Assembly: GCA_965261395.1 (NCBI GenBank)
Contig: OZ253462.1
Location: forward strand, 2,272,001 to 2,336,000
Direction of reading: 5' to 3'
From: Candidatus Latescibacterota bacterium
GTDB taxonomy: Bacteria; Latescibacterota; UBA2968; UBA8231
Length of the DNA stretch: 64,000 nt
Shown here: piece by piece, positions 5,012-16,002 of the stretch
Layout: each line of letters starts with the position of its first letter
Numbering within the stretch: the first letter of the stretch is position 1
The notes under the pieces: generated by a model
Seen by the model: the letters and a program-made list of their open reading frames with translations, nothing else
Databases searched by the model: none
Told to the model about the DNA's origin: nothing
Program-made: the position numbers and the translations under genes

Positions 5012-6026
5012 TACTAGCGGCTATTTCATTGAATTCAATCAAGTGAAGCCCGTTGTTCAATAGCCCAGCCTTGATAACTCGGAATGACTAACCAACGCGT
5101 CACCTCATCACCGCGAGGGGTGAGCTCCCCGGATTCATCAACACAATTCATGGTAAAAACGAACTGGTCATTACGTTTTTCACCGTCCACGCAAAAAATG
5201 AGATCGACCGTAATATTTGTTATGGCGGATGTATTATCTATAATGCGAATGATGGCCGCATCAATCAGTGTCAGATCTTGCATCGTCTCACGAATTTCTC
5301 CGGCACGTCGGCTAATCGCGCGGTTGTCAAAGTAAACCGTCAACGCGCCCATACATCCAAAGTTGTTCTTCTTCCAAGCCCGCAAGAATTCAACGAGCGC
5401 TGCTTCCGGCTCACCCGAGTTGAAGGAGGCAATCTCAGACTCCGCAAGCACATTGATCCATCCCTCGAAAACCGGCCGAGGCGTCCATGCCTCAATACGC
5501 TCGCTTAGTTCTTTCGTCTGGACGTAGTTGGTGAATGTTTCGGAAAGAGATGGATTAGATGGAGGGTTCAGAGCCTCTTCCGCTTCACGAGCACGAATGA
5601 CGTCGGCAATATTGCTTAAGAAAGACCAGCATTTCGCGGTGACCAGTCGGTTGCCATATCCAAGGTCGCGGCCATGGAGGATACCATTTCGATAGGGAAA
5701 GCTGATGTGTTTTCTTGTCGTTTTGCGTCGGGTGCGGCACATCTCGCGGATCAGTTTCGGTAAAGCGTCTGGCTGTCCAGCGAGGGAATGAAGTTCTTCG
5801 AGGTTTACGCCCTCGCTGAATATTGATTTCTGGAACACATCCTCTCCGACCCCATCCGCAACGATGAACAACAAAGGCGCTGCGGCAAGATAACGAGTCT
5901 CTTGGGTCAACGTAAGCGCTTCCTGAAGTTGCTCTCTGCGAAGCTCGAACCCTTTCGTCTGACAAAGATGCTTTACAACAAAATGTAGCCTCTCACCTTC
6001 ATAATCAGTTGCTAATAGATCTTCGG

Positions 6027-7211
6027 GGCTTTGGTGCATGAATTGGTGTTTTTTTCGGTTGATCGGTTGAATAAAAACAGGCTCCTCAGTAGATTGAGCA
6101 CGACTTTCGCCAAAAAACCCATGCTTTCTCGTCCAAGGAACCTGTCATGGCCAACCTATCGTCTTGCCCCTCTTCCGTCAAGCCTGGTCGCTCGCCTCGC
6201 CGTCGCTCCAACGTCGTGTACCGGGTACGTAATTGGGCCGACTATGAGGCCGGGCTGCAACAGCGCGGTAGTCTGACGGTGTGGTTCACGCCCCAGGCCG
6301 TCGAAGCTTGGTATTATCAAGGGCCGCCTCAGCGGGGGGCGCAATATACCTTTTCGGAGGTCGCCATCCAAACGGCGTTGACGCTGCGTCTTTTGTATCA
6401 CTTGCCCCTACGCCAAACCGAGGGGTTTGTCGCTTCGGTGTTGGCCCTGATGGGCTTGGATCTGCGGGTGCCCGATCACACGACCCTGTCGCGCCGTCAG
6501 GCGGGTTTAGCCGTGGCGTGGCCGCCCCAGCGGGGAGACCAACCGATGCACTTGGTGGTGGATTCGACCGGGCTGAAAGTGTATGGCGAAGGCGAATGGA
6601 AGGTGCGTCAGCACGGCTGGAGCAAGCGGCGCACGTGGCGCAAATTGCACCTCGGGGTTAATGAAGCCACCGGCGAGATCGTCGCGCAGACCTTGACGAC
6701 GAATAGCCACGATGATGCGGGGCAGGTGGAGCCGTTGCTGGCACAGATCGAGGCCCCCGTGGAGGCGTTGGGCGGCGATGGGGCCTATGACAAACGCAAG
6801 GTGTTCAAGGCGTTGGCCGCGCCCGAGCAGGGGGCACCTATTCATCCGATCATTCCGCCGCGCAAGGACGCCAAAATCGAGCAACATGGCAACACCAACG
6901 CCGAGCCGTTGCCCCGCGATGAGACGATTCGAGCCATCCGCAAACGGGGCCGTCGAGGTTGGAAACACGAGAGCGGCTATCATCGACGCTCGGTAGCCGA
7001 AACGCAGATAGGCCGCTACAAACAGATACTTGGTGACACCTTGCGCACCCGAACCCTAACCAACCAACAGACCGAAGCGCGGTTGGGCTGTGCCTTGCTC
7101 AACCGGATGCGGGCGTTGGCGAAACCTGAGTCCTATCCGCTAACCAAAAAAGCGTAAATCACACGCGAAAGAAGCCAACACGGCCCCGACCGGTTTTCAT
7201 GCAACAAAGCC
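6027..7211 (+). mobile_element. IS5-family (IS903-group) insertion sequence, 1185 bp
   Basis: TIRs GGCTTTGGTGCATGAA (6027-6042) and TTCATGCAACAAAGCC (7196-7211), 15/16 match; 9-bp TSD GATCTTCGG at 6018-6026 and 7212-7220. Confidence 0.95.
6147..7157 (+). CDS. IS5/IS903-group DDE transposase
   Basis: NWADYEAGLQQRGSLTVW, DSTGLKVYGEGEW, WRKLHL, GDGAYD, YHRRSVAET. Confidence 0.95.
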   Translation: MANLSSCPSSVKPGRSPRRRSNVVYRVRNWADYEAGLQQRGSLTVWFTPQAVEAWYYQGPPQRGAQYTFSEVAIQTALTLRLLYHLPLRQTEGFVASVLALMGLDLRVPDHTTLSRRQAGLAVAWPPQRGDQPMHLVVDSTGLKVYGEGEWKVRQHGWSKRRTWRKLHLGVNEATGEIVAQTLTTNSHDDAGQVEPLLAQIEAPVEALGGDGAYDKRKVFKALAAPEQGAPIHPIIPPRKDAKIEQHGNTNAEPLPRDETIRAIRKRGRRGWKHESGYHRRSVAETQIGRYKQILGDTLRTRTLTNQQTEARLGCALLNRMRALAKPESYPLTKKA

Positions 7212-7554
7212 GATCTTCGGCATCGTCAACGCGGCAGTCCTTGTGGGCGGCAAGTGCCGCCTTTGCCGTCTCAATATTTGTGGACTCAGAAATGAGCCAG
7301 CCGAGTTCAGAGAAGGCTTCATGGAATTCCTCAATCAATTTGGCAAGCTTGGTCGCTTGCTGCTTCGAATCCTTCAAATCAGCAACGATGGTCTTTAGGT
7401 GATCACCGCCTATGCCAAATCGCGAAAGCAGTGCCAGGAATGGTTCGAGATGTCCGATTGCGCGGACTAGGTTGATCTGTTCTTGAAACGCTGGAGGGAG
7501 TGGAAGCTTACGATTTCGTGACATCAATTCTCAGCAGAAGGTAATGTTTGATAC

Positions 7555-7785
7555 TCATGCGCTAGGCAGTGGAACTTCCCGTTCTCCGACCCGCCATGCT
7601 GCGTAGGCTAGCGCCTGATCGATGTCTTCCTGTTCAAGATAAGGGTAGGCGCTCAGGATTTCCTCGGAGGACCGGCCGGCTGCCAAGAGACCCACGATGG
7701 TTCCAACCGTCACGCGTAGCCCCCGGATACATGCCTTGCCGCCCATAACGGCAGGGTCGAGCGTGATTCTCGATAGTCCTTCCAT
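7555..7785 (-). CDS. DUF433 domain protein (antitoxin-like, orphan)
   Basis: RITLDPAVMGGKACIRGLRVTV...EEILSAYPYLEQEDIDQALAYAA is the DUF433 pattern; no cognate PIN gene downstream. Confidence 0.9.
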   Translation of the reverse strand: MEGLSRITLDPAVMGGKACIRGLRVTVGTIVGLLAAGRSSEEILSAYPYLEQEDIDQALAYAAWRVGEREVPLPSA

Positions 7786-7890
7786 GATCCGTTTCTCCTA
7801 TTCAATCGCGCTCCAATTAATCCGAACCGCATCGACCCTATTAGTTACGCCTAGGGACTTTTCCCAGTCAACAGCCTCTTTGGAAGTGCC

Positions 7891-8103
7891 CTACCGCTCC
7901 CACAATTCGCTCAACGGCATGGTGAGTATGCGCTCGTCGGCCAATGGGAGCTTGTCGCGACCGGCGTAGAGTAGCACCCCAGACTCGAAATCCTCGCCGC
8001 AGCGATCAGCCAGCCGCACAAGCCCTTGCCCGTCTTTGGAGGTGAGCGCATTGGCGGCTTTGACCTCAATGCCCCAAGTCTTCCGGCCCCGAGTAAGGAC
8101 TAG
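7891..8103 (-). pseudogene. C-terminal remnant of an AAA+/DUF4143 ATP-binding protein
   Basis: Manual translation LVLTRGRKTWGIEVKAANALTSKDGQGLVRLADRCGEDFESGVLLYAG...MPLSELWER*; no start codon, 5' part missing. Confidence 0.75.
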
Positions 8104-8195
8104 ACTAAAGCCTCCCGTAGGACGGGTGCCAGCGAGCGGGGAAACAGGGAGCGACCAGCGTCCAATTGTCGGTTAGAGGAGCGTCCAATTGTCGA
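8103..8195. repeat. Hairpin boundary element B plus a tandem 15-bp direct repeat
   Basis: AGCGTCCAATTGTCG at 8157-8171 and 8180-8194; GGACG (8120-8124) can pair with CGTCC (8159-8163). Confidence 0.6.
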
Positions 8196-8206
8196 ATGTT
8201 ACTGTC

Positions 8207-9547
8207 TCAGGTAAACATAATCCTGCCGTCTTGGAGGGGCATGTAGATGGAGTGCGCAGCGTGAACTTGCCAAGCTGCATGCGCTGCAAGACGCTGCACA
8301 GTCTCCGGGGACAAGGCAGTGAATCCAGTCTTCACTGTGTTCATCCTGTGAGCAGCATTATCTCCTCCTAGTTGCGCGTGGTACTCTTTCGCAGCAGTGA
8401 AGTCGCAGCCAACTCCTTCCAAGTAGGCGACGATACGTGCGGGATCGTCATTCGAAGGAATCGTGGCTTCGGACTCCCCAGCATGCTCGCCGAGCTCCAC
8501 GAGCCTCCATCTCGGAATTGAACTAAAGAAGGAGTTCCAACTCTGTGCCACGCGAACAAACAAGAGTGCTCGCCGTCTGCGTTTCGGCTCTTGGTCCAAG
8601 TAGCTCGCTATCCCCTTGTTCGGCACGATTGAGCCACGTCGCAACTCTTCGGCGAGCCAAGAGTGAATCAATTGATCGTGGATCTCCTGTCTTGCCCAGC
8701 GGTTCTGCTTGTCGTTCATCACTAGCATGAGCCGATCAAGGGTCCGTCCACTTAAGAGCCACATGAAGAAACCCCTGACCGAACCAACAAGCCCTCGATT
8801 CTGCCAAGGTCGGTCATGGACACCCGCATCGCTCACAACAAGGTTCCATGAGGCATAGCGTCGGCTCTTCAAAAGAGTCTGAATGCCGAGATTCTCAAGC
8901 ACACCACCGTCGGTAAGGTAAATTTTCTTCGCTCCAGCCAATGAGTCCCTAAATTGCGTTCCGGGTGGGAAGTCTCTCAGTTGCAAGGTTAGCGGTGGAA
9001 GGCCGATTGGGAACGCAGCGGAGGCAGCGACAGCACGCGCTAAGGGAAAATTGCTCCAAGGCACTACATGGGATGGTCTAGCTCCGGGGACAGTAATTCC
9101 CCAGGCAGAGAATCCGTCCCGTGAAAACTTAGCTATCTGACCGTTGTTCAATACCGTCGTGTTTATACACAAAGCCGGGCGTTCAGGCAGACGCTCTAGC
9201 GTAACTCCCTGTAACAAAACGCGATCGAAGGTATCCGCGAGCAAATGAGTTCGCGAGTACGGTACTTTAGGGATCAGCACGCGGAGCAGAGACGGCCTGA
9301 TCGACCTAGCAATGAACCCGCACAAAAGTTCTTTCTGGATACTATCAGTGAACTCCCTTACACTCTGTCCATCTACCTTTGCTGCCATCCAAGCAGCACC
9401 AAAGAGTGATCCGCCAGATACCGTAGAAACAACATCTATCTTGTCAATTAGATTCAGTTCCGAAAGCGCAGAGATCGTTCCACAATGAAATGCTGCGGCG
9501 CGAGACCCGCCTCCAGACAACGCAAGTCCGAGATCGTACATGAGCAC
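8207..9547 (-). CDS. Patatin-like phospholipase
   Basis: ALSGGGSRAA oxyanion loop, STVSGGS nucleophile elbow, AASAAFP, TDGGVLEN. Confidence 0.92.
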   Translation of the reverse strand: MLMYDLGLALSGGGSRAAAFHCGTISALSELNLIDKIDVVSTVSGGSLFGAAWMAAKVDGQSVREFTDSIQKELLCGFIARSIRPSLLRVLIPKVPYSRTHLLADTFDRVLLQGVTLERLPERPALCINTTVLNNGQIAKFSRDGFSAWGITVPGARPSHVVPWSNFPLARAVAASAAFPIGLPPLTLQLRDFPPGTQFRDSLAGAKKIYLTDGGVLENLGIQTLLKSRRYASWNLVVSDAGVHDRPWQNRGLVGSVRGFFMWLLSGRTLDRLMLVMNDKQNRWARQEIHDQLIHSWLAEELRRGSIVPNKGIASYLDQEPKRRRRALLFVRVAQSWNSFFSSIPRWRLVELGEHAGESEATIPSNDDPARIVAYLEGVGCDFTAAKEYHAQLGGDNAAHRMNTVKTGFTALSPETVQRLAAHAAWQVHAAHSIYMPLQDGRIMFT

Positions 9548-9562
9548 TTACCGATGGACCTT

Positions 9563-11776
9563 TTAATGAGCTTTGATGTGACACTGAATCTCTGTTTCCC
9601 CAACGATCAGTACAATTCCCGGAAGTCCCTCCGACCGCATGTGCTTGGTAACGAATTCTAGAACTTGCTTATCGTCAGAACTCATTTTCAACGATATACC
9701 TGAAGGATGTGAGTGCCATTCCCCTATGTAGTGTACGGCTTGACCTGTCCATTTTTCGATTTTCTCTACGTCCTTGCGAAGTCCCACTGAGCCTCGGATG
9801 AATGCCGTTGGCCATTCTTCGCTATCGGGGGGAGCAGGTAGTGCATCCACAAGAAGAATACTCTTGCGGTGCGCGTCCACTGTCCCGACCAAGACACCGC
9901 CAGTCTCACATGGTAAAGCGCTAGAACGAAGATCGAGAAGGTGGGTCTTAAGACGGGAGTTGATGCCTATTTTCCAGTCCGATCCCTCAAACCATTGGCA
10001 GGCCGTTGCCGGTGAGCAGTGGTGCTCTACTGCTAGTTCGTCTGTCAAGCGCCAGATGGATACGAACCCCTCTTCTGTGAGTCGCTGCACTGCGCCCGCC
10101 GTGATTGCCGCATGGAGCGCCACGCGATCTTGGGGTATGTGCATCGAGATATCGGCGCACGAGCCGCCGTATCGAAGTGATGCGGGATTTTCTTGGTAGA
10201 ACTCTTGGAGGTCTTTCGTTCGAATAAGAAGCCGATGGAACTGGGCTTCCAGTTCATAAATCGTGAAAGCCCGGTCGGCGTCTTCGACAAGCATCACAAG
10301 GTATCTGCCGCTTGGACTTAAAAAAGCCGATATTCGCCGTGCCTTCGAAAAAGTGTCATCCGCGAGATGCCGCGCCACCGCGGTAGACGCGGAGAAATCG
10401 AAGACGATCTCCGCCTCATTAAGAGCCGCGGCGAGATTCCTCGCCTTGTCTCTTGGATTAAGCACATCGCAGACGAGGGCTTGTACCTTCGAGTCCTGGA
10501 CCGTGTCCATCAGCGCCGCTGCCATATACTGAGCCTTCGGGAAGCCCAAGCTCCGACTGAGCAACGCGTGTCGTGTCAGGTTATGGGGCAAAAGCACATC
10601 GTGATCAATAAGCGTCCATGAACCGAACCCCGTCCGGATCAGGTTGGACACTACTTGCGAGCCGAGAGCTCCTTGTCCCACTGCCACCGCCTTGCGCAGA
10701 TCGGGATCTCGTCCGGCAGCGCGGGCCGCTATTCGCATCGAGAGCTCAGACACCGGGTGAAGGCATACTAGCCTGACTTCTTCAGGGGTTGGATTTTCTT
10801 GAGGGATCAGAGTGCAGGCGTGTCCCTCTCTCATTTGCCATAGACCGAGGTTTTCTCCAAGTGTAGCGACTGTCTCGTCAATAGAGAACGCAAAAATGTC
10901 CGTCGCCTCTACGGCTCTACCGCTCTTTCGGAGCTTGGGCAGAACCGTTATCAGGATCGGTTTTCGGTCTAGGAGTTCCTTGTTCTCTCTCCACTTCTCG
11001 AGTCGAGACACGAGTTCCGTAACGAGGTCGATCTCCGCGGCCGAAAGCAGATCGCGAAGGTCTGCGAGCGTAAGAGGCGTATGTGCGATGATGCCATGCT
11101 CCTGCGCTTGACCGACGAAGACCGTCGCCACGGAGTGTACGACGTGCTCTTGCCCAAGATCCTCGATGTCCTCCGGATGCCGAGCTACCAGAACGGGCCG
11201 TTTCATTTCAGGCGTTTGGACGTGGATCACGTCGAGGCGGACTGGTCCATTTTCCTCCCCGAAATTCGCTGGCACGATAAGCGGAATACCTGTACCCAAT
11301 AGCAGTGGCTCCAAGGGCTGATCGTCGGCATGCAACTCATCTCGCGCCGTTGCGGCGAGCCAATTGCGAAGGACTTCTATGAAGCGCCCAGGCGTCCACC
11401 AGAGCTGGGTTTCATGCCAGGGCTCTTCAAAGAGACAAAGACTGCGAGGAACTGCCGTATCGCGTAGGTTCAAATGGGGTACGAAGGGGAAACAACGGCG
11501 CAGTGCGAAGACCTCTGGTGTCCATCTGTCATCACGCGAGAATTCGGTCGATAGCCGCTCTTGCAGACGGATATCGTGAATGCGATCTTGGGCAAGCTCA
11601 ACGTCGACCTCAAACGTGACAATATCTGTATCCTCGGTCTTGGAGAGTGATACGAGGCGGGCAAAAGGAATCTCACCTGCTCGCAGGAGCTCTGCCAACT
11701 CGCGAGCACGGGATACAAACGAAGTGCTATCGTCACACAACTCGCCTTTTGCCGCGATCCAGAGATCCTCTGTCAT
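9563..11776 (-). CDS. E2-E1(ThiF)-JAB fusion protein (Cap2/Cap3-like)
   Basis: N-terminal E2-like region with PHLN...SLCLFEEPW; ThiF GQGALGS and DHDVLLPHNLTRH with candidate Cys in YGGSCAD; JAB ETGGVLVG...YIGEWHSHP...SSDD. Confidence 0.92.
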   Translation of the reverse strand: MTEDLWIAAKGELCDDSTSFVSRARELAELLRAGEIPFARLVSLSKTEDTDIVTFEVDVELAQDRIHDIRLQERLSTEFSRDDRWTPEVFALRRCFPFVPHLNLRDTAVPRSLCLFEEPWHETQLWWTPGRFIEVLRNWLAATARDELHADDQPLEPLLLGTGIPLIVPANFGEENGPVRLDVIHVQTPEMKRPVLVARHPEDIEDLGQEHVVHSVATVFVGQAQEHGIIAHTPLTLADLRDLLSAAEIDLVTELVSRLEKWRENKELLDRKPILITVLPKLRKSGRAVEATDIFAFSIDETVATLGENLGLWQMREGHACTLIPQENPTPEEVRLVCLHPVSELSMRIAARAAGRDPDLRKAVAVGQGALGSQVVSNLIRTGFGSWTLIDHDVLLPHNLTRHALLSRSLGFPKAQYMAAALMDTVQDSKVQALVCDVLNPRDKARNLAAALNEAEIVFDFSASTAVARHLADDTFSKARRISAFLSPSGRYLVMLVEDADRAFTIYELEAQFHRLLIRTKDLQEFYQENPASLRYGGSCADISMHIPQDRVALHAAITAGAVQRLTEEGFVSIWRLTDELAVEHHCSPATACQWFEGSDWKIGINSRLKTHLLDLRSSALPCETGGVLVGTVDAHRKSILLVDALPAPPDSEEWPTAFIRGSVGLRKDVEKIEKWTGQAVHYIGEWHSHPSGISLKMSSDDKQVLEFVTKHMRSEGLPGIVLIVGETEIQCHIKAH

Positions 11777-12882
11777 CAGCCCGCTCGCGGTGCCGTGCGA
11801 TTCACGAGCGGAGCACCCACCATGACCTTCTTCTTCAGGGACGCGCCCGAACTTCCGATCTCGATGATGAGCCGCTCTGGGGCGCTCTTTTTGGTGTGCT
11901 CCATCGTCACGACAAACTCTCCCTGGAGACCTTTGGCAACTTTATCGTAGTAATTAGCTGCCTGCTGGTGAGGAGGATCATTCGTCTCCTCGGGCGGAAC
12001 GGGGTCGCTGGACGACACCAAGATCGCTCTGGATTGACCTTGGTTCTCGTAGAGCCATTCGACCTCTGGAACAGGCTCCGTCGAGGTCTTTCCCTTCTCG
12101 GGTCCGAGTGAGAGATAGCTGCAATGATGAGGCAACTTCACGACATCGTATTCTAGGCGGCTCTCGTTTCCGTGTGCTTTGGTCACGGTGACGATTCCAG
12201 CGAGATCTTCGTGGTCTAGGTCGGCACCTAAGAAGACACGGGTCAATCGCCCGCCAACCTTGAACATTGCTTGCAACGCAAGCGAAGTGGAATTTCTCAC
12301 GATCGCGCGGCCGTCAGAGGCCGACTCCGCAAACGGCGAGTGAACAAAGAGCTCTACTCCACCGGATGCGAACGAGAATCCCGGTACGAGGCGTCCTGCG
12401 TCGGTGATGAGGTGCGCTCGGTCGCTGAGCTTCAAGCCCTGCTGGTTGAGCCACTCCTCAAGGGATTCGGGACGCGAAAAGACACGGATGCCCTTACCCT
12501 CCTTGAGCCTGTGCCGTGCCTCGGCCCGGATAATCTTGGCCTCCTTCGCTTCGAGTGCCTCCTCCACGATAACGGCGGCGGGCACCCAAAGTTCTCCGAT
12601 CTTGATGCGGTCGTTGCTCTGATACTTGGCGGCATGGTCTAAAAAGAAAACGTCGCTGACCCCCTTATAATGATCTTCGTCGAGGTGCGATATGGCCAGC
12701 ACGTCGACATCATCGCGTGTGCCAAGGTCTTCACGCAGGGCTTTCGGAAGGTCGATACGGAGGTCATTTTCCTCATCTCCTCTGGTTGCCGCGAAATCCA
12801 TAACGAGAACGCGGCCGTCGGTCAGTTCGACTAGACAGCAATCGGCATTGCCGAGCGGATAAAATGTTAATTTTGGTGTCAT
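11776..12882 (-). CDS. Metallo-beta-lactamase-fold (ComEC-like) hydrolase with C-terminal Gly
   Basis: LGNADC, SHLDEDH (HxDxDH), NSTS, GAD, KLPHHCS; ends ...TAPRAG*; stop overlaps the next start by 1 bp. Confidence 0.9.
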   Translation of the reverse strand: MTPKLTFYPLGNADCCLVELTDGRVLVMDFAATRGDEENDLRIDLPKALREDLGTRDDVDVLAISHLDEDHYKGVSDVFFLDHAAKYQSNDRIKIGELWVPAAVIVEEALEAKEAKIIRAEARHRLKEGKGIRVFSRPESLEEWLNQQGLKLSDRAHLITDAGRLVPGFSFASGGVELFVHSPFAESASDGRAIVRNSTSLALQAMFKVGGRLTRVFLGADLDHEDLAGIVTVTKAHGNESRLEYDVVKLPHHCSYLSLGPEKGKTSTEPVPEVEWLYENQGQSRAILVSSSDPVPPEETNDPPHQQAANYYDKVAKGLQGEFVVTMEHTKKSAPERLIIEIGSSGASLKKKVMVGAPLVNRTAPRAG

Positions 12883-12970
12883 ATCTTGTCCTCCCTTATC
12901 ATATTTGATTCTTTGTTCATCGGCGGAACTCTACTGGCCTCGATCCTAGTCTCTCCAGGACTGCACCAAG

Positions 12971-13015
12971 AAAGTATCATTTGTTAAAAATTAGAAAAGA
13001 TGATAACTTTGTCAA
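12971..13015. promoter_or_regulatory. Overlapping divergent sigma70-like promoters with a palindromic operator
   Basis: Minus: TTGACA(13015-13010)-16-TAATTT(12993-12988). Plus: TTGTTA(12981-12986)-17-TAACTT(13004-13009) with an extended TG. Imperfect inverted repeat AAAGTATCAT...ATGATAACTTT. Confidence 0.6.
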
Positions 13016-13047
13016 GAGATCAATCAAATGCCCCACGAGGAGAAACA

Positions 13048-14181
13048 ATGGCTGGTGAAGAGCACATTGCCGCGAATATCGCCCGGCTACGGCTGGATCG
13101 GCAGTTGACCCAAGAGGAACTCGCCCGCAAGGCGGGACTCTCAAGGGTCGCGCTCGGAAAGATCGAACGAGGTATCGTCGTCCCACGTGCCCGGACCCTC
13201 ACCGCTATAGGAAAAGCATTAGGCGTTCCGCTCGGCGATCTCGCGACGCCTGTTCGGCCCCTTGAGACCGTGCGATTCCGCGTCCAGGCACGAGTCCACG
13301 CTCGGGCGCAGATCTTGGCCGAGGTCGCAAAGTGGCTTGACGCCTACACCCAAGTCGAAGCCGATCTCGGCCAGTCGTGTCTCTTCCGATTCAAGGCTGT
13401 TCGCACTCAGCACAGGAACCCAATGAAGGCCGCTCAGGCCGCGCGCAAAGCCATCGGGCTTAGGCCGGAAGAGCCGGTGCGCGACATCTGCGGACTACTC
13501 GAAGGCAACGGGGTGAAGCTCCTGCTCATCGAGAGGAAAAGCGACTCCTTCTTCGGACTGAGCGTCGGTGCAAGGGACGGCGGTCCTGCCGTGGTGGTCA
13601 ATACTTGGGAGCGGATCTCAGTGGAGCGCTGGATCTTCACCGCGGCACACGAACTCGGCCATTTGTTGCTCCACCCCACCGAGTATCGACGCGATGCCAC
13701 CGAACTCCCCGTGCAGACAGAGCGCGAGGCCGACGCCTTTGCGAGCCACTTCCTGATGCCAGAAGCCGCGTTCGCCTCGGAGTGGGACGAGACCCGGGGA
13801 CACCCGCTCCTCGTCCGCGTCCTCAAGGTCAAGCGCATCTTCCGAGTGAGTTACAAAACCGTGCTCTATCGGCTGGTCGAGTCTGGTCGTGAAACCTCGG
13901 ATATCTGGCGTGCATTCCAGCTCCAGCATCGCGGTTACTTCGGCAAGACGCTTCGCAGGACCGACGAACCCGAAGCACTTGAAAGAAGCGAGTTCGCCTG
14001 GAACTGGAGTCGCTCCGGCGAGCCCGAGGGCCTCTCCCGGCACGACTTTGTCGAGGGTCGCCTCTCGCGGCTCGTGCGACAGGCGCTCGAACAGGAGCAC
14101 ATCTCACTCGGGCGTGCCGCCGAGATTCTGGGGCTGGCCCGGGAGGAGATGAGGAGGCAGGCACGTGAGTGGGTGGGGTAG
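13048..14181 (+). CDS. XRE HTH + M78 (ImmA/IrrE-like) metallopeptidase fusion
   Basis: LTQEELARKAGLSRVALGKIERG HTH; FTAAHELGH, EREADAFASHFLMP; ATG at 13048 follows GAGGAG. Confidence 0.92.
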   Translation: MAGEEHIAANIARLRLDRQLTQEELARKAGLSRVALGKIERGIVVPRARTLTAIGKALGVPLGDLATPVRPLETVRFRVQARVHARAQILAEVAKWLDAYTQVEADLGQSCLFRFKAVRTQHRNPMKAAQAARKAIGLRPEEPVRDICGLLEGNGVKLLLIERKSDSFFGLSVGARDGGPAVVVNTWERISVERWIFTAAHELGHLLLHPTEYRRDATELPVQTEREADAFASHFLMPEAAFASEWDETRGHPLLVRVLKVKRIFRVSYKTVLYRLVESGRETSDIWRAFQLQHRGYFGKTLRRTDEPEALERSEFAWNWSRSGEPEGLSRHDFVEGRLSRLVRQALEQEHISLGRAAEILGLAREEMRRQAREWVG

Positions 14182-14683
14182 ATGGCGATGGCCCAGACCG
14201 TGCTGCTCGCCGACGCAGATGTGCTCATTGACTACCGCGAGTCGGAGATCAAGATCCTTGAACTCGTGGTGCAGCATATAGGGAGAGTGGTCGTTTTGGC
14301 TCCCGTGCTTGATGAGGTGCAGGGCGTGACGCCGGCGCAATGTGCACAACTCGGGATTGAGGTCGTCGAGGTCGAGACAGAGCAGTTGGTACGGGCTTCA
14401 GAGGTCGAGTCCCGCGTGTCCTTCAATGATCGCCTCTGCTTGGTCACGTGTCGCGAAGAGGGTTAGGACATGCGTCACAAACGACGGTGCGCTCCGACGG
14501 CTCTGCGAGCGCCACGGCGTGGCGACGCGATTCGGCCTCGGTCTTATGGTAGATCTGGTCGCTGCCGGTGCCCTCACCCGGCAGCGTGCCATGGCTGTCG
14601 CCCGCCAAATCCAAGCGTCGAACCCGCTCCACATCAACGAGCGCGTAATTCAGCGGTTCTTGGAAGCCCTTGGGGAGACTTGA
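14182..14683 (+). pseudogene. PIN-domain protein with a +1 frameshift
   Basis: VLLADADVLID...SFNDRLCL...EEG then TCVTNDGALRRLC in the next frame; deleting A14465 restores GGT TGG ACA (G-W-T). Confidence 0.8.
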
Positions 14684-14790
14684 CATCTAGTCCTAGCGCA
14701 CCGGCTCTTCCAGCCCGTCTCGCCACGACATGTACTTGGCCGGTCGCACGACCTCACGCCGCACGATGCGATCATCTATCATAACGACCT

Positions 14791-16002
14791 ATGAACCGAC
14801 CGTCGCGTTTTGCGCGCACCACCGCTGGCCTGGACCTCAAGGCCCTGCTCAGCCCACTGCGCAAAGTTTTCTGGCTGTCGCTGGGAATCGCCGTGCTGCT
14901 GAACGCGATCTTGGTTCTGCTCAACCCCTTCCAGCAGCAGGCTGAAAAAGCACCTCGGCCGCTAACCACCAAATTCGTCAAACGCCAACCGCGCCTGACT
15001 AAGGCGCTGGAGCTGCGCAAGATTCCCCAACGCAAACGCCCGATGATCCGTCGCCAAGTACGCGCCGCCGCCGCCCGCATGGATCAGGTGCAAGCTACCG
15101 CGGCTTTCTCCACGCGCGCCATCATCGCTCGTTCGGTTGGCATAGCGAATATGCTCCAAGTCGGCCAGAGCAACCCACAGACGCTCCAAGCGGCACTGGA
15201 ACCGGTCGTGGGGCTAGCAGCGAACGTGGAGATCAGCCGCACACCCGAGCATAAAATCGACATGGGCTTGGAGATGCTGGATGTCGATGCCATGGACACC
15301 GGCCGCTACCGCGCCTTGGTGATACAGGATCCCAACGACAAGCAGGGGATCAAAGGCTTTGTCAAATTCGCCCGCGTGGTCTCGGCCACTTATATGACTG
15401 AGACCCGGACCAATGTCGTCGATGGCGGGCTTAACAATCGGGAAATCGACGTCCTGCGCGATATGCTCAACGAGTGGACCGGCTTGCGAGCTGAGTTCGT
15501 CGGCAGCTTTACCTTTGATGACAACCGCTTTCTATCAGTGCCGATCGTCATCCCCCAAGGCGAGCCCAATGAAAACGAGTTGGAGAATCTGGCGCGCTAC
15601 CTGCTGGCGGGGGGCTTTGTCATGGCCGAGCAATTCGACTTCGAGGGGTTTTGGACCGAGGCTCTAGAAAAATACGGGGGACTGGTCAAGGGACGCGATT
15701 TTTACACCGAACGCCTGCGGGAAGACCATCCGATATTCACGGCCTATTTTGACTTGGGGGATGGCGTCGCGCAGGGTGCCACGCGTTTTAACGATCCGTA
15801 CTACTGGAATGCGGTGAAGGGCTTGTTCGTCAAGGGACGGCTGGTGGCCGTGCCTCGGGCCAACTCGGGTATCGGGGGGTATCTGGGCTTTGCCGCCGAC
15901 CGCGATGCGACCCGCATCCTACAGTTTGCAATCAACACCGTGATCTACGCGCTGACCCAAGAAGGGTCCATGACGCAGCGGTTAATGCAGATTGTACACT
16001 GA
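14791..16002 (+). CDS. Membrane-anchored DUF4159-like protein
   Basis: N-terminal TM helix; C-terminal ELENLARYLLAGGF, DHPIFTAYFD, QFAINTVIYALT pattern. Confidence 0.65.
   Translation: MNRPSRFARTTAGLDLKALLSPLRKVFWLSLGIAVLLNAILVLLNPFQQQAEKAPRPLTTKFVKRQPRLTKALELRKIPQRKRPMIRRQVRAAAARMDQVQATAAFSTRAIIARSVGIANMLQVGQSNPQTLQAALEPVVGLAANVEISRTPEHKIDMGLEMLDVDAMDTGRYRALVIQDPNDKQGIKGFVKFARVVSATYMTETRTNVVDGGLNNREIDVLRDMLNEWTGLRAEFVGSFTFDDNRFLSVPIVIPQGEPNENELENLARYLLAGGFVMAEQFDFEGFWTEALEKYGGLVKGRDFYTERLREDHPIFTAYFDLGDGVAQGATRFNDPYYWNAVKGLFVKGRLVAVPRANSGIGGYLGFAADRDATRILQFAINTVIYALTQEGSMTQRLMQIVH

Follow-up and report, generated by a model that had tools for sequence, protein, structure and literature searches.

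A patatin gene as the probable third component of a 6A-MBL conjugation operon in a Latescibacterota bacterium

Three genes on the minus strand of a 64,000-nucleotide stretch of a Candidatus Latescibacterota genome (the whole analyzed stretch is called the window below) raise the question of whether a patatin gene at the end of a ubiquitin-like conjugation operon is part of the system that the operon encodes, and whether that system is new. The genes encode, in order, an MBL-fold protein (ORF1, 11776..12882, 368 aa), a single-chain E2-E1-JAB enzyme, cap2_3 (ORF2, 9563..11776, 737 aa), and the patatin (ORF3, 8207..9547, 446 aa, probable start ATG at 9541). The original prediction described them as tightly linked, with a 1-bp overlap and a 15-bp gap, in agreement with the minus-strand ORF coordinates: the MBL and cap2_3 frames have base 11776 in common (a 1-bp ATGA overlap) and 15 bp (9548-9562) separate cap2_3 from the GTG start of the patatin ORF. 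Because the patatin homologues begin at a Met two codons inward, the true gap could be 21 bp. As also predicted, no CD-NTase or beta-grasp gene was detected by Pfam among the ORFs scanned at 5035-16002, a set that takes in only some of the ORFs shorter than 60 aa.

Operon type 6a was defined by Iyer, Burroughs and Aravind in 2006 and is described there as "usually two genes" (PMC1779556). The naming of 6A-MBL and its testing against phage are credited to van den Berg et al. 2024 in three later sources (PMC13276650, PMC11601596 and bioRxiv 10.1101/2025.09.30.679545). Judged by sequence, the MBL and cap2_3 are an ordinary member of this named, phage-tested system, because both exceed the NCBIfam equivalog cut-offs (371.5 bits against NF058524, cut-off 220, for the MBL; 611 bits against NF058523, cut-off 320, for cap2_3). 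Like other members, the locus has a PRAG-tailed MBL directly upstream of a single-chain E2-E1-JAB, and the catalytic residues are conserved; it differs from the usual two-gene description in having the patatin as a third gene. The NCBIfam 6A-MBL models match the MBL and cap2_3 only, and none matches the patatin. Thus, the earlier assignment to a cyclase-free operon of class 6a/6A-MBL holds, whereas the suggestion of a new system does not, the core being one already named and tested. No text linking a patatin with 6A-MBL was retrieved by our literature search, which was confined to main texts other than van den Berg 2024; third genes of 6A-MBL may already be described in that study.

The domains of cap2_3 follow one another along the minus strand. 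Pfam places the E2 domain (Prok-E2_A, with Cys114) at residues 50-171 (nt 11264-11629), the E1 domain (ThiF) at residues 364-470 (nt 10367-10687), with the E1 cysteine Cys540, and the JAB isopeptidase (Prok-JAB, with His688 and His690) at residues 610-703 (nt 9668-9949). Cys114, Cys540 and His688/His690/Asp702 are invariant among 20 homologues (alignment A2) and present in the window. PADLOC models for E1-E2 and JAB match with 103 and 76 bits, and the match to the Cap3 model NF050170 is weak (23.7 bits). Together with the invariant residues of the MBL and the patatin given below, this confirms the earlier reading of intact motifs in all three genes.

The MBL has no Pfam match, and a search of the PDB with the single sequence also returned none. 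Its metal ligands (His66, Asp70, His71, His181, Asp221, His252, His253 and His305) are invariant across 39 sequences. The AF2 model has a pLDDT of 89.2, with the tail (residues 353-368, nt 11779-11826) below 50, and Foldseek ranks the ComEC beta-lactamase-like domain 9ic4 first (E 8.9e-15); phosphodiesterases are also among the relatives of MBL fold (Pce and a protein of this fold with bound cAMP). The protein ends in ...NRTAPRAG, and 52 of 53 MBLs of the family have a P-R-A/V-G motif in their C-terminal 16 residues, with 26 stopping exactly at the Gly. The MBL is therefore likely to be the conjugated moiety, as the original prediction had it: the tail is conserved, disordered and of PRAG type, and this role for the MBL is already given in the literature (PMC11601596).

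The third gene encodes a patatin catalytic domain at residues 8-225 (PF01734, 79.3 bits), followed by a conserved helical C-terminal domain at residues 252-435, both on the minus strand. The SGGGSR motif (residues 11-16), Ser44 within STVSGGS (nt 9416-9418) and Asp213 within Asp-Gly-Gly (nt 8909-8911) are invariant in 81 homologues, and across the window's patatin family the first Gly of the G-x-S-x-G motif is replaced by Thr, Ser or Ala. The three elements correspond to the G-G-G-x-R/K oxyanion loop, the nucleophilic serine and the D-G-G aspartate that mark a patatin-like phospholipase. The AF2 model (pLDDT 91.4) is matched best by the CBASS lipases AbCapV and CapE and then by PlpD; the similarity to the CapV/CapE-type structure 9jeh (E 4.2e-10, about 15% identity, TM 0.42/0.52) is a likeness of fold only. 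While a PDB search with the single sequence found no match, a profile search based on alignment A3 matched ExoU alone, over the N-terminal 60 residues, and the ExoU serine of the G-x-S-x-G motif is aligned to Ser44. We infer that the window's patatin has lipase activity and acts on the membrane. The 6A-linked patatins have no PADLOC match (the window's patatin has none at E <= 0.01), so nothing ties this patatin to a known family of gated effectors.

To place the patatin in the context of the wider family, we surveyed 67 metagenome 6A-MBL loci whose cap2_3 is 35-42% identical to that of the window; genes were called as longest ORFs, transmembrane (TM) segments were counted with a simple hydropathy window, and 57 loci could be evaluated downstream. 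In 13 of these, a patatin abuts cap2_3 at its 3' end, on the same strand in eight and convergent in five; the five are thus not co-transcribed with cap2_3. All 13 overlap the cap2_3 stop or sit within about 160 bp of it. The same slot holds a multi-TM protein of roughly 250 aa (cluster k2) in 28 loci, another small TM protein in three, and something else or nothing in the remaining 13. Of the 14 loci with a patatin match, 13 have the patatin in this position; L094 is the sole exception. On a cap2_3 tree of 60 rows, the distribution of patatin and non-patatin loci requires at least 10 changes; as far as this tree goes, such repeated switching is the pattern of a modular effector. Eleven database clusters in which cap2_3 and patatin are linked indirectly hint that the clade of cap2_3 proteins more than 50% identical is always accompanied by a patatin.

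The order MBL, cap2_3, patatin is the same in L007 and L009. It also occurs on plasmid pGOX1 of Gluconobacter oxydans, where an annotated patatin overlaps by 14 bp; this genome is among those of the original 6a list (PMC1779556). The one Klebsiella plasmid copy of 6A-MBL that was examined has no membrane gene. Within the Latescibacterota, cap2_3 was found in 10 of 168 genomes, and the next gene is a patatin in four of them (three separate, one fused) and a multi-TM protein in six.

The fused case is found in a genome of the window's genus (L115:1279-4830), where one 1183-aa ORF contains Prok-E2_A, ThiF, Prok-JAB and Patatin. The fusion (390 bits) and the MBL upstream of it (313.5 bits) both exceed the NCBIfam 6A-MBL cut-offs. 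Among the matches listed, 120 of 120 relatives of this protein (P0244-P0363; 994-1228 aa) have all four Pfam domains. These E2-E1-JAB-patatin proteins (about 1160 aa) have the same four activities as the window's operon, a 6A-type MBL upstream (L115, L121) and the same serine motif, x-V-S-G-G-S/A. They differ in that the patatin is joined to the JAB domain and is not a separate gene, shares only about 24% identity with the window's patatin over the catalytic domain and is without the latter's type of C-terminal domain. We found no name for the fusion family, which is known as database entries. A further 1167-aa ORF, in L041, was rejected as a cap2_3-patatin fusion: its middle is Arg/Pro-rich out-of-frame text. 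We take it for a cap2_3 gene with a frameshift and a separate patatin behind it, and it was left out of the fusion count; this ORF had merged the cap2_3, E1 and patatin clusters into a single cluster, k0.

The patatin association is therefore conserved, recurrent and in places fused. The original prediction had made its case depend on conservation of the patatin beside such operons elsewhere; this was checked, and distant loci, loci of the same phylum and fusions all speak for a real, conserved partner. The view of the patatin extension as a rarity of one island has to be given up in favor of a common, recurrent and sometimes fused variant.

The patatins of the window's own family are not confined to 6A-MBL. 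On the patatin tree, a clade of six rows from four phyla (the window, L007, L009, L008, L027 and L010) adjoins MBL genes throughout. In four loci (L008, L011, L012 and L031; L031 was left off the tree), genes for E2, Phd-E2, E1, JAB and MBL directly precede a patatin of this family (41-68% identical), with no called MBL in L012. These split operons have the same list of enzymatic parts as the window, but the enzymes are separate genes, and their MBL, which belongs to a different type (cluster c2/k4, PDC-M48B-like), follows the JAB gene and has Ala or some other residue at its C-terminus, unlike the PRAG-ended MBL of the window. Our literature search returned no description of split E2/Phd-E2/E1/JAB/MBL/patatin operons. 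Over the whole tree, 15 of the 24 loci with judgeable surroundings have no MBL, E1 or JAB neighbor among the called ORFs, so a patatin of the window's family can do without the system.

Upstream of the operon, an AT-rich divergent intergenic region of 117 bp (12883..12999) contains the ribosome-binding site of the MBL gene, the Shine-Dalgarno-like AAGGGAGG 7 nt upstream of its start ATG, as read from the sequence. It presumably also contains promoters and an operator; a scan for promoters and terminators gave no more matches than shuffled sequences, including a single sigma-70-like match on the minus strand (13027-13000). The divergent gene (13000..14181, plus strand) encodes a regulator in which an N-terminal HTH (HTH_3, residues 27-81) is fused to an ImmA/IrrE metallopeptidase (Peptidase_M78, residues 206-292), an architecture like CapH plus CapP or like RmrA (PADLOC scores of 129 bits for RmrA, 62.7 for capP and 27 for capH). 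A homologue is at the same position in L007 and L009, and of the 67 metagenome loci, 11 have homologues (cluster k3) close by. The G+C content of the island is 0.51-0.57 compared to 0.60-0.64, and an IS5 transposase and other cargo are present.

We consider it probable that the locus is a three-gene 6A-MBL member with a swappable effector slot, occupied in the window by a patatin phospholipase. If conjugation proceeds as in type II CBASS, the fused E2-E1-JAB would adenylate the ComEC-like MBL at its exposed C-terminal glycine and hand it via Cys540 and Cys114 to an amine of the target; trimming or reversing the conjugation would fall to the JAB domain. The third gene would be the occupant of the slot at the 3' end of cap2_3, which elsewhere holds a protein of 3-4 TM segments or a patatin, in some cases fused to cap2_3. 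With Ser44 and Asp213, the window's patatin would hydrolyze membrane phospholipids, and the infected cell would be killed or arrested (abortive infection). The divergent HTH-M78 protein would govern expression. That MBL conjugation is coupled to the patatin is our inference. The patatin may, as the original prediction suggested, be turned on by conjugation or by JAB cleavage rather than by a small molecule. A more specific version, which we put forward tentatively and regard as rather less than probable, is that 6A-MBL is a three-part system whose killing module is the membrane protein of the slot (patatin or 4-TM), switched on directly, without a nucleotide second messenger, by conjugation of the MBL either to the effector or, in the manner of Atg8, to an amine of a membrane lipid.

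Alternatively, the two genes of the core may suffice, with the MBL itself as effector and the patatin as an add-on, since 6a operons usually have two genes and neither the 13 loci without a membrane gene, out of 57, nor the Klebsiella plasmid copy has a third component of this kind. In its strong form, this means that the MBL is the real effector, a ComEC-like nuclease freed by conjugation, and that the patatins and TM proteins are independent or co-travelling defense or toxin genes. The ComEC nuclease-type domain as the nearest fold, the invariant metal ligands, the convergent orientation of five of the 13 slot patatins and the occurrence of window-family patatins alone are consistent with this. 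We nevertheless consider it unlikely, given the occupation of one slot by membrane-directed proteins, the position of the patatin directly at the cap2_3 3' end in all but one of the loci with a match, and the large family of single-chain E2-E1-JAB-patatin fusions, which mere co-travel would not yield. A predicted complex of MBL and patatin scored 0.00, its controls were not folded, and it bears on neither reading.

A second alternative is a messenger as in CBASS: an MBL phosphodiesterase primed by conjugation would make or destroy a small molecule that gates the patatin or TM effector. The layout indeed mirrors type II CBASS, with the MBL in place of the cyclase and patatin or TM proteins in place of the effector. 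Homologous E1-E2 and JAB enzymes (fused into one chain in the window), an enzyme whose free C-terminus is, or in the window would be, conjugated, a lipase of patatin fold as the last gene of the operon and a CapH/CapP-like regulator are present in both, CapV and CapE, the folds closest to the patatin, are gated by cGAMP and cUA, and phosphodiesterases are among the relatives of the MBL. However, the window differs in that no CD-NTase was found in the three genes or the scanned neighbors (5035-16002) and no source of cyclic nucleotides is evident. The patatin itself differs from CapV in sequence (about 15% identity) and in its helical C-terminal domain (about 190 aa), does not belong to the CapV/CapE sequence family by either identity or PADLOC match, and has no nucleotide-binding domain recognized by Pfam, which reports Patatin only. 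In addition, a hydrolase would be an unusual signal maker, and a covalent fusion of effector and ligase better suits control within a complex than a diffusible signal. We regard a messenger as improbable. Finally, it is very improbable that the genes are chance neighbors in a defense island and the patatin part of no system here: low island G+C, the IS5 transposase and other cargo would fit, but the comparative data contradict it (L007 and L009 keep the order, distant members repeat the association, and fusions exist).

Returning to the three-gene system with an effector slot, 6A-MBL belongs to the bacterial systems that join ubiquitin-like conjugation to antiviral immunity, and our literature search returned no statement of its effect on the cell or of the substrate of the conjugated MBL. 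If the slot effector is a regular component, the two-model NCBIfam definition omits a part present in most examined loci, and the killing enzyme may be other than the MBL. The fusion and its MBL would then constitute a two-gene system from which to purify ligase and effector together, and it could be used to probe the gating of an effector by conjugation without a cyclase. If the direct three-part version is true, a ubiquitin-like ligase would be coupled to a death effector in a manner new to bacterial immunity, with the natural E2-E1-JAB-patatin fusions as the minimal form of such a system.

The operon of three − strand ORFs at 8207–12882 encodes a metallo-beta-lactamase-fold (MBL) protein (P0001, 368 aa, 11776–12882), the single-chain E2-E1-JAB enzyme cap2_3 (P0002, 737 aa, 9563–11776; Pfam domains Prok-E2_A, ThiF and Prok-JAB) and a protein with a Pfam patatin domain (P0003, 446 aa, 8207–9547). 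P0001 and P0002 overlap by 1 base and 15 bases separate P0002 from the GTG start of P0003, whose homologues start at a Met two codons inside that GTG. Based on sequence, the first two genes belong to a known family, the 6A-MBL system. P0001, for which there is no Pfam match, scores 371.5 bits on NCBIfam NF058524 (‘anti-phage 6A-MBL system MBL-fold protein’, cut-off 220) and P0002 scores 611 bits on NF058523 (‘6A-MBL system cap2_3 protein’, cut-off 320). Unlike these two, the patatin matches no NCBIfam 6A-MBL model. The operon type was defined as 6a by Iyer, Burroughs and Aravind in 2006 (PMC1779556); it was later named 6A-MBL and counted among tested defences, jumbo phages included, in two sources that attribute the work to van den Berg et al. 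2024 (PMC13276650; bioRxiv 10.1101/2025.09.30.679545). According to another source, the signalling enzyme itself is the protein conjugated by the fused E2-E1 in a group of pathways termed ‘Type II CBASS/Pycsar/MBL’ (PMC11601596).

The active sites of the operon are intact. Within the family, the E2 Cys114, E1 Cys540 and JAB His-x-His/Asp residues of cap2_3 are invariant, as are the MBL metal ligands. The structure model of the MBL has high confidence (pLDDT 89.2) outside residues 353–368, which form a disordered tail. Among solved structures, the fold of the MBL comes closest to the ComEC beta-lactamase-like domain, with the phosphocholine esterase Pce next. Of 53 family members, 52 have the sequence P-R-A/V-G in this tail, within their C-terminal 16 residues. 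In 26 members the protein ends exactly at the Gly and the others carry 1–10 residues beyond it, as ubiquitin precursors likewise do.

The G+C content of the block is 0.51–0.57 versus 0.60–0.64 in its flanks. Divergent from the operon is a gene for an HTH domain fused to an M78 (ImmA/IrrE) peptidase (13000–14181; PADLOC matches RmrA, capP and capH), and the order regulator, MBL, cap2_3, patatin is kept in L007 and L009, the two closest relatives, which come from MAGs labelled Candidatus Latescibacterota. Downstream cargo includes a + strand IS5-family transposase (6147–7157, 312.7 bits) and, on the − strand, a DUF433 gene (7555–7785) and the 122-aa ORF behind it (7159–7527), which may form a toxin-antitoxin pair. 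Between the patatin and a sulfatase gene there is also an orphan 334-aa − strand ORF (5035–6039, G+C ~0.50) with no match in Pfam, NCBIfam or PADLOC. Two copies of the 15-bp word CGACAATTGGACGCT (− strand) lie 8 bp apart at 8157–8194, the first beginning 13 bp past the patatin stop codon; the repeat could serve as an operator or recombination site, or mark where a mobile element ends. Outside the window, the same genome encodes a second, separate pair of proteins resembling E1 (76 bits) and JAB (55 bits) (G000:C1:6228921-6229966; L002, L003), which might represent a further module of the ubiquitin-like or CBASS type.

Using the cap2_3 alignment, 67 metagenome loci were fetched whose cap2_3 proteins are 35–42% identical to that of the window. 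Ten stop too soon past cap2_3, and the downstream gene was judged in the other 57. The gene abutting the cap2_3 3′ end encodes a patatin in 13 of the 57, on the same strand in eight (L041, L043, L044, L049, L069, L076, L080 and L091) and convergent in five (L042, L058, L067, L078 and L083). Seven of these patatins were scanned with Pfam and all are PF01734; the other six were recognized by tblastn matches and motifs. A protein of cluster k2 (~250 aa, 2–4 predicted TM helices) occupies the position in 28 loci, another small TM protein in three, and something else in 13 (an integrase, Wadjet JetA, an AAA ATPase, or nothing). Without the duplicate loci (L043/L044 and L060/L064) the counts are 12 of 55 for patatin and 28 of 55 for k2. 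The sole patatin match elsewhere in these loci lies 3 kb upstream (L094). A second ComEC-like MBL, similar to PADLOC PDC-M48B (cluster k4; for example, L059:4653-5645), is present in 12 of the 67 loci, mostly directly after the TM gene, and many systems therefore consist of four genes. The similarity of the TM protein to Csx27 of type VI-B CRISPR loci is weak and does not reach the cut-off (42.5 bits).

Within the phylum of the window, cap2_3 scores above the cut-off in 10 of 168 genomes, including only two of 30 other genomes of its genus; the spread is patchy, as for a defence gene. In all ten, the next gene encodes a patatin (G000, the window's own genome; G141, with L007; G164, with L009; and G134) or a multi-TM protein (G056, G058, G072, G073, G079 and G104). 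A match was present in 276 plasmid records, of which three were examined. Plasmid pGOX1 of Gluconobacter oxydans 621H, a strain in the 6a genome list of Iyer et al. (PMC1779556), encodes the MBL (394 bits) and cap2_3 (606.7 bits), and has an annotated patatin gene that shares 14 bp with cap2_3. In the Klebsiella copy no patatin or membrane gene follows cap2_3, and in the Hymenobacter example a convergent AAA ATPase gene does.

On a FastTree phylogeny of 60 cap2_3 proteins, the patatin versus non-patatin label changes at least 10 times and the TM label at least eight times, and both are more clustered than in shuffles. The placement of the two plasmid rows is unsure because of their long branches. 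Judged from these sequences, the position after cap2_3 is modular. Its patatins are of at least three kinds: that of the window (family A, ~440 aa, whose helical C-terminal domain is conserved), shorter or TM-anchored proteins with 26–33% identity, and patatins fused to E2-E1-JAB. The STVSGGS motif pointed out in the original prediction is an instance of the unusual x-V/I-S-G-G-S/A nucleophile turn that replaces G-x-S-x-G in all of these kinds.

The fusion is exemplified by L115:1279-4830 (G134, from the window's genus), an unbroken 1183-aa ORF encoding the domains Prok-E2_A, ThiF, Prok-JAB and Patatin, preceded by a 6A-type MBL; the two proteins pass the NCBIfam cut-offs with 390 and 313.5 bits, respectively. 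Among the matches listed to this fusion (at least 120 clusters, 994–1228 aa, P0244–P0363), 120 of 120 have all four Pfam domains, and Acidobacteria, Deltaproteobacteria and Candidatus Peribacteria are among the taxa named as their sources. Searching a 401-genome sample of another phylum (that of the MAG behind L013, labelled Acidobacteriota) gave matches in four genomes: in the first the gene is now split, with a 6A-type MBL ahead of its N-terminal part; in another the match is near-full length with an internal TAG; and two have only the patatin part. An apparent fusion at L041:4011-7514 was rejected, as its cap2_3 appears frameshifted and out-of-frame Arg/Pro-rich text runs into the patatin frame; this ORF had merged separate protein clusters in our clustering.

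The 6A-MBL system itself is already known, and databases show its patatin variant to be widespread. In the literature searched (a scope without van den Berg et al. 2024 and supplements), no text links a patatin with 6A-MBL and E2-E1-JAB-patatin fusions are not mentioned; PADLOC-DB 2.0 holds no model matching the 6A-linked patatins.

Scanning with the patatin alignment yielded 30 loci, and a quick IQ-TREE phylogeny was built with 29 rows. The window falls in a clade (SH-aLRT 99) with L007, L009, L008 (Myxococcota), L027 (Rubritalea) and L010, and MBL-fold genes neighbour all six. Separate E2, Phd-E2, E1 and JAB genes lie directly upstream of the patatin in L008, L011, L012 and L031, with a ComEC-like MBL gene between JAB and patatin in L008, L011 and L031; no MBL gene was called in L012. 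In the scanned locus (L011:4390-9287), which encodes an E2, a Phd/YefM-antitoxin-domain-E2 fusion, a ThiF-type E1, a JAB protein, a ComEC-like MBL and a family A patatin, the E2, E1 and JAB assignments are confirmed by PADLOC E2, E1-E2 and JAB models and by NCBIfam. The MBL of these split operons ends in Ala or another residue, not PRAG, and the arrangement looks like an unfused cousin of 6A-MBL. The Rubritalea sp. MAG (L027:4301-11499) has a 6A-type MBL (400 aa, 346 bits, tail ...WGFGGN), then a CBASS-type protein with E2 alone (187 bits on PADLOC E2) and the patatin, but neither E1 nor JAB. The opposite strand carries two further MBL-fold genes, and a patatin fragment lies upstream. L029 has an MBL and a patatin. 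As evidence against this linkage, 15 of 24 judged loci of the tree have no MBL, E1 or JAB neighbour among called ORFs, and such family A loci are mostly from Acidobacteriota and Myxococcota (40–48% identity). The patatin is therefore a general enzyme that was recruited.

The conjugation chemistry of type II CBASS provides a model for 6A-MBL. By this analogy, cap2_3 would activate the terminal Gly of the MBL and ligate the MBL to a target, and the JAB domain would trim MBL precursors and reverse conjugates. Two weaker explanations are retained because 13 of the 57 loci and the examined Klebsiella copy have no membrane gene after cap2_3. Acting as a phosphodiesterase, the MBL could make or remove a CBASS-like messenger that couples it to the effector, or the ComEC-like MBL could be a sufficient nuclease effector, with the patatin as an add-on. 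Elsewhere the position is filled by a patatin or by small multi-TM proteins, and the membrane is therefore the common denominator. The patatin structure model (pLDDT 91.4) has the Ser44/Asp213 dyad, and its closest folds are the CBASS lipases AbCapV and CapE, then PlpD, cPLA2 and patatin. We consider it reasonably likely that the patatin is a membrane-degrading effector of abortive infection. The existence of E2-E1-JAB-patatin fusions speaks for control of this predicted effector within one complex, which may operate through conjugation to the effector itself or through allostery.
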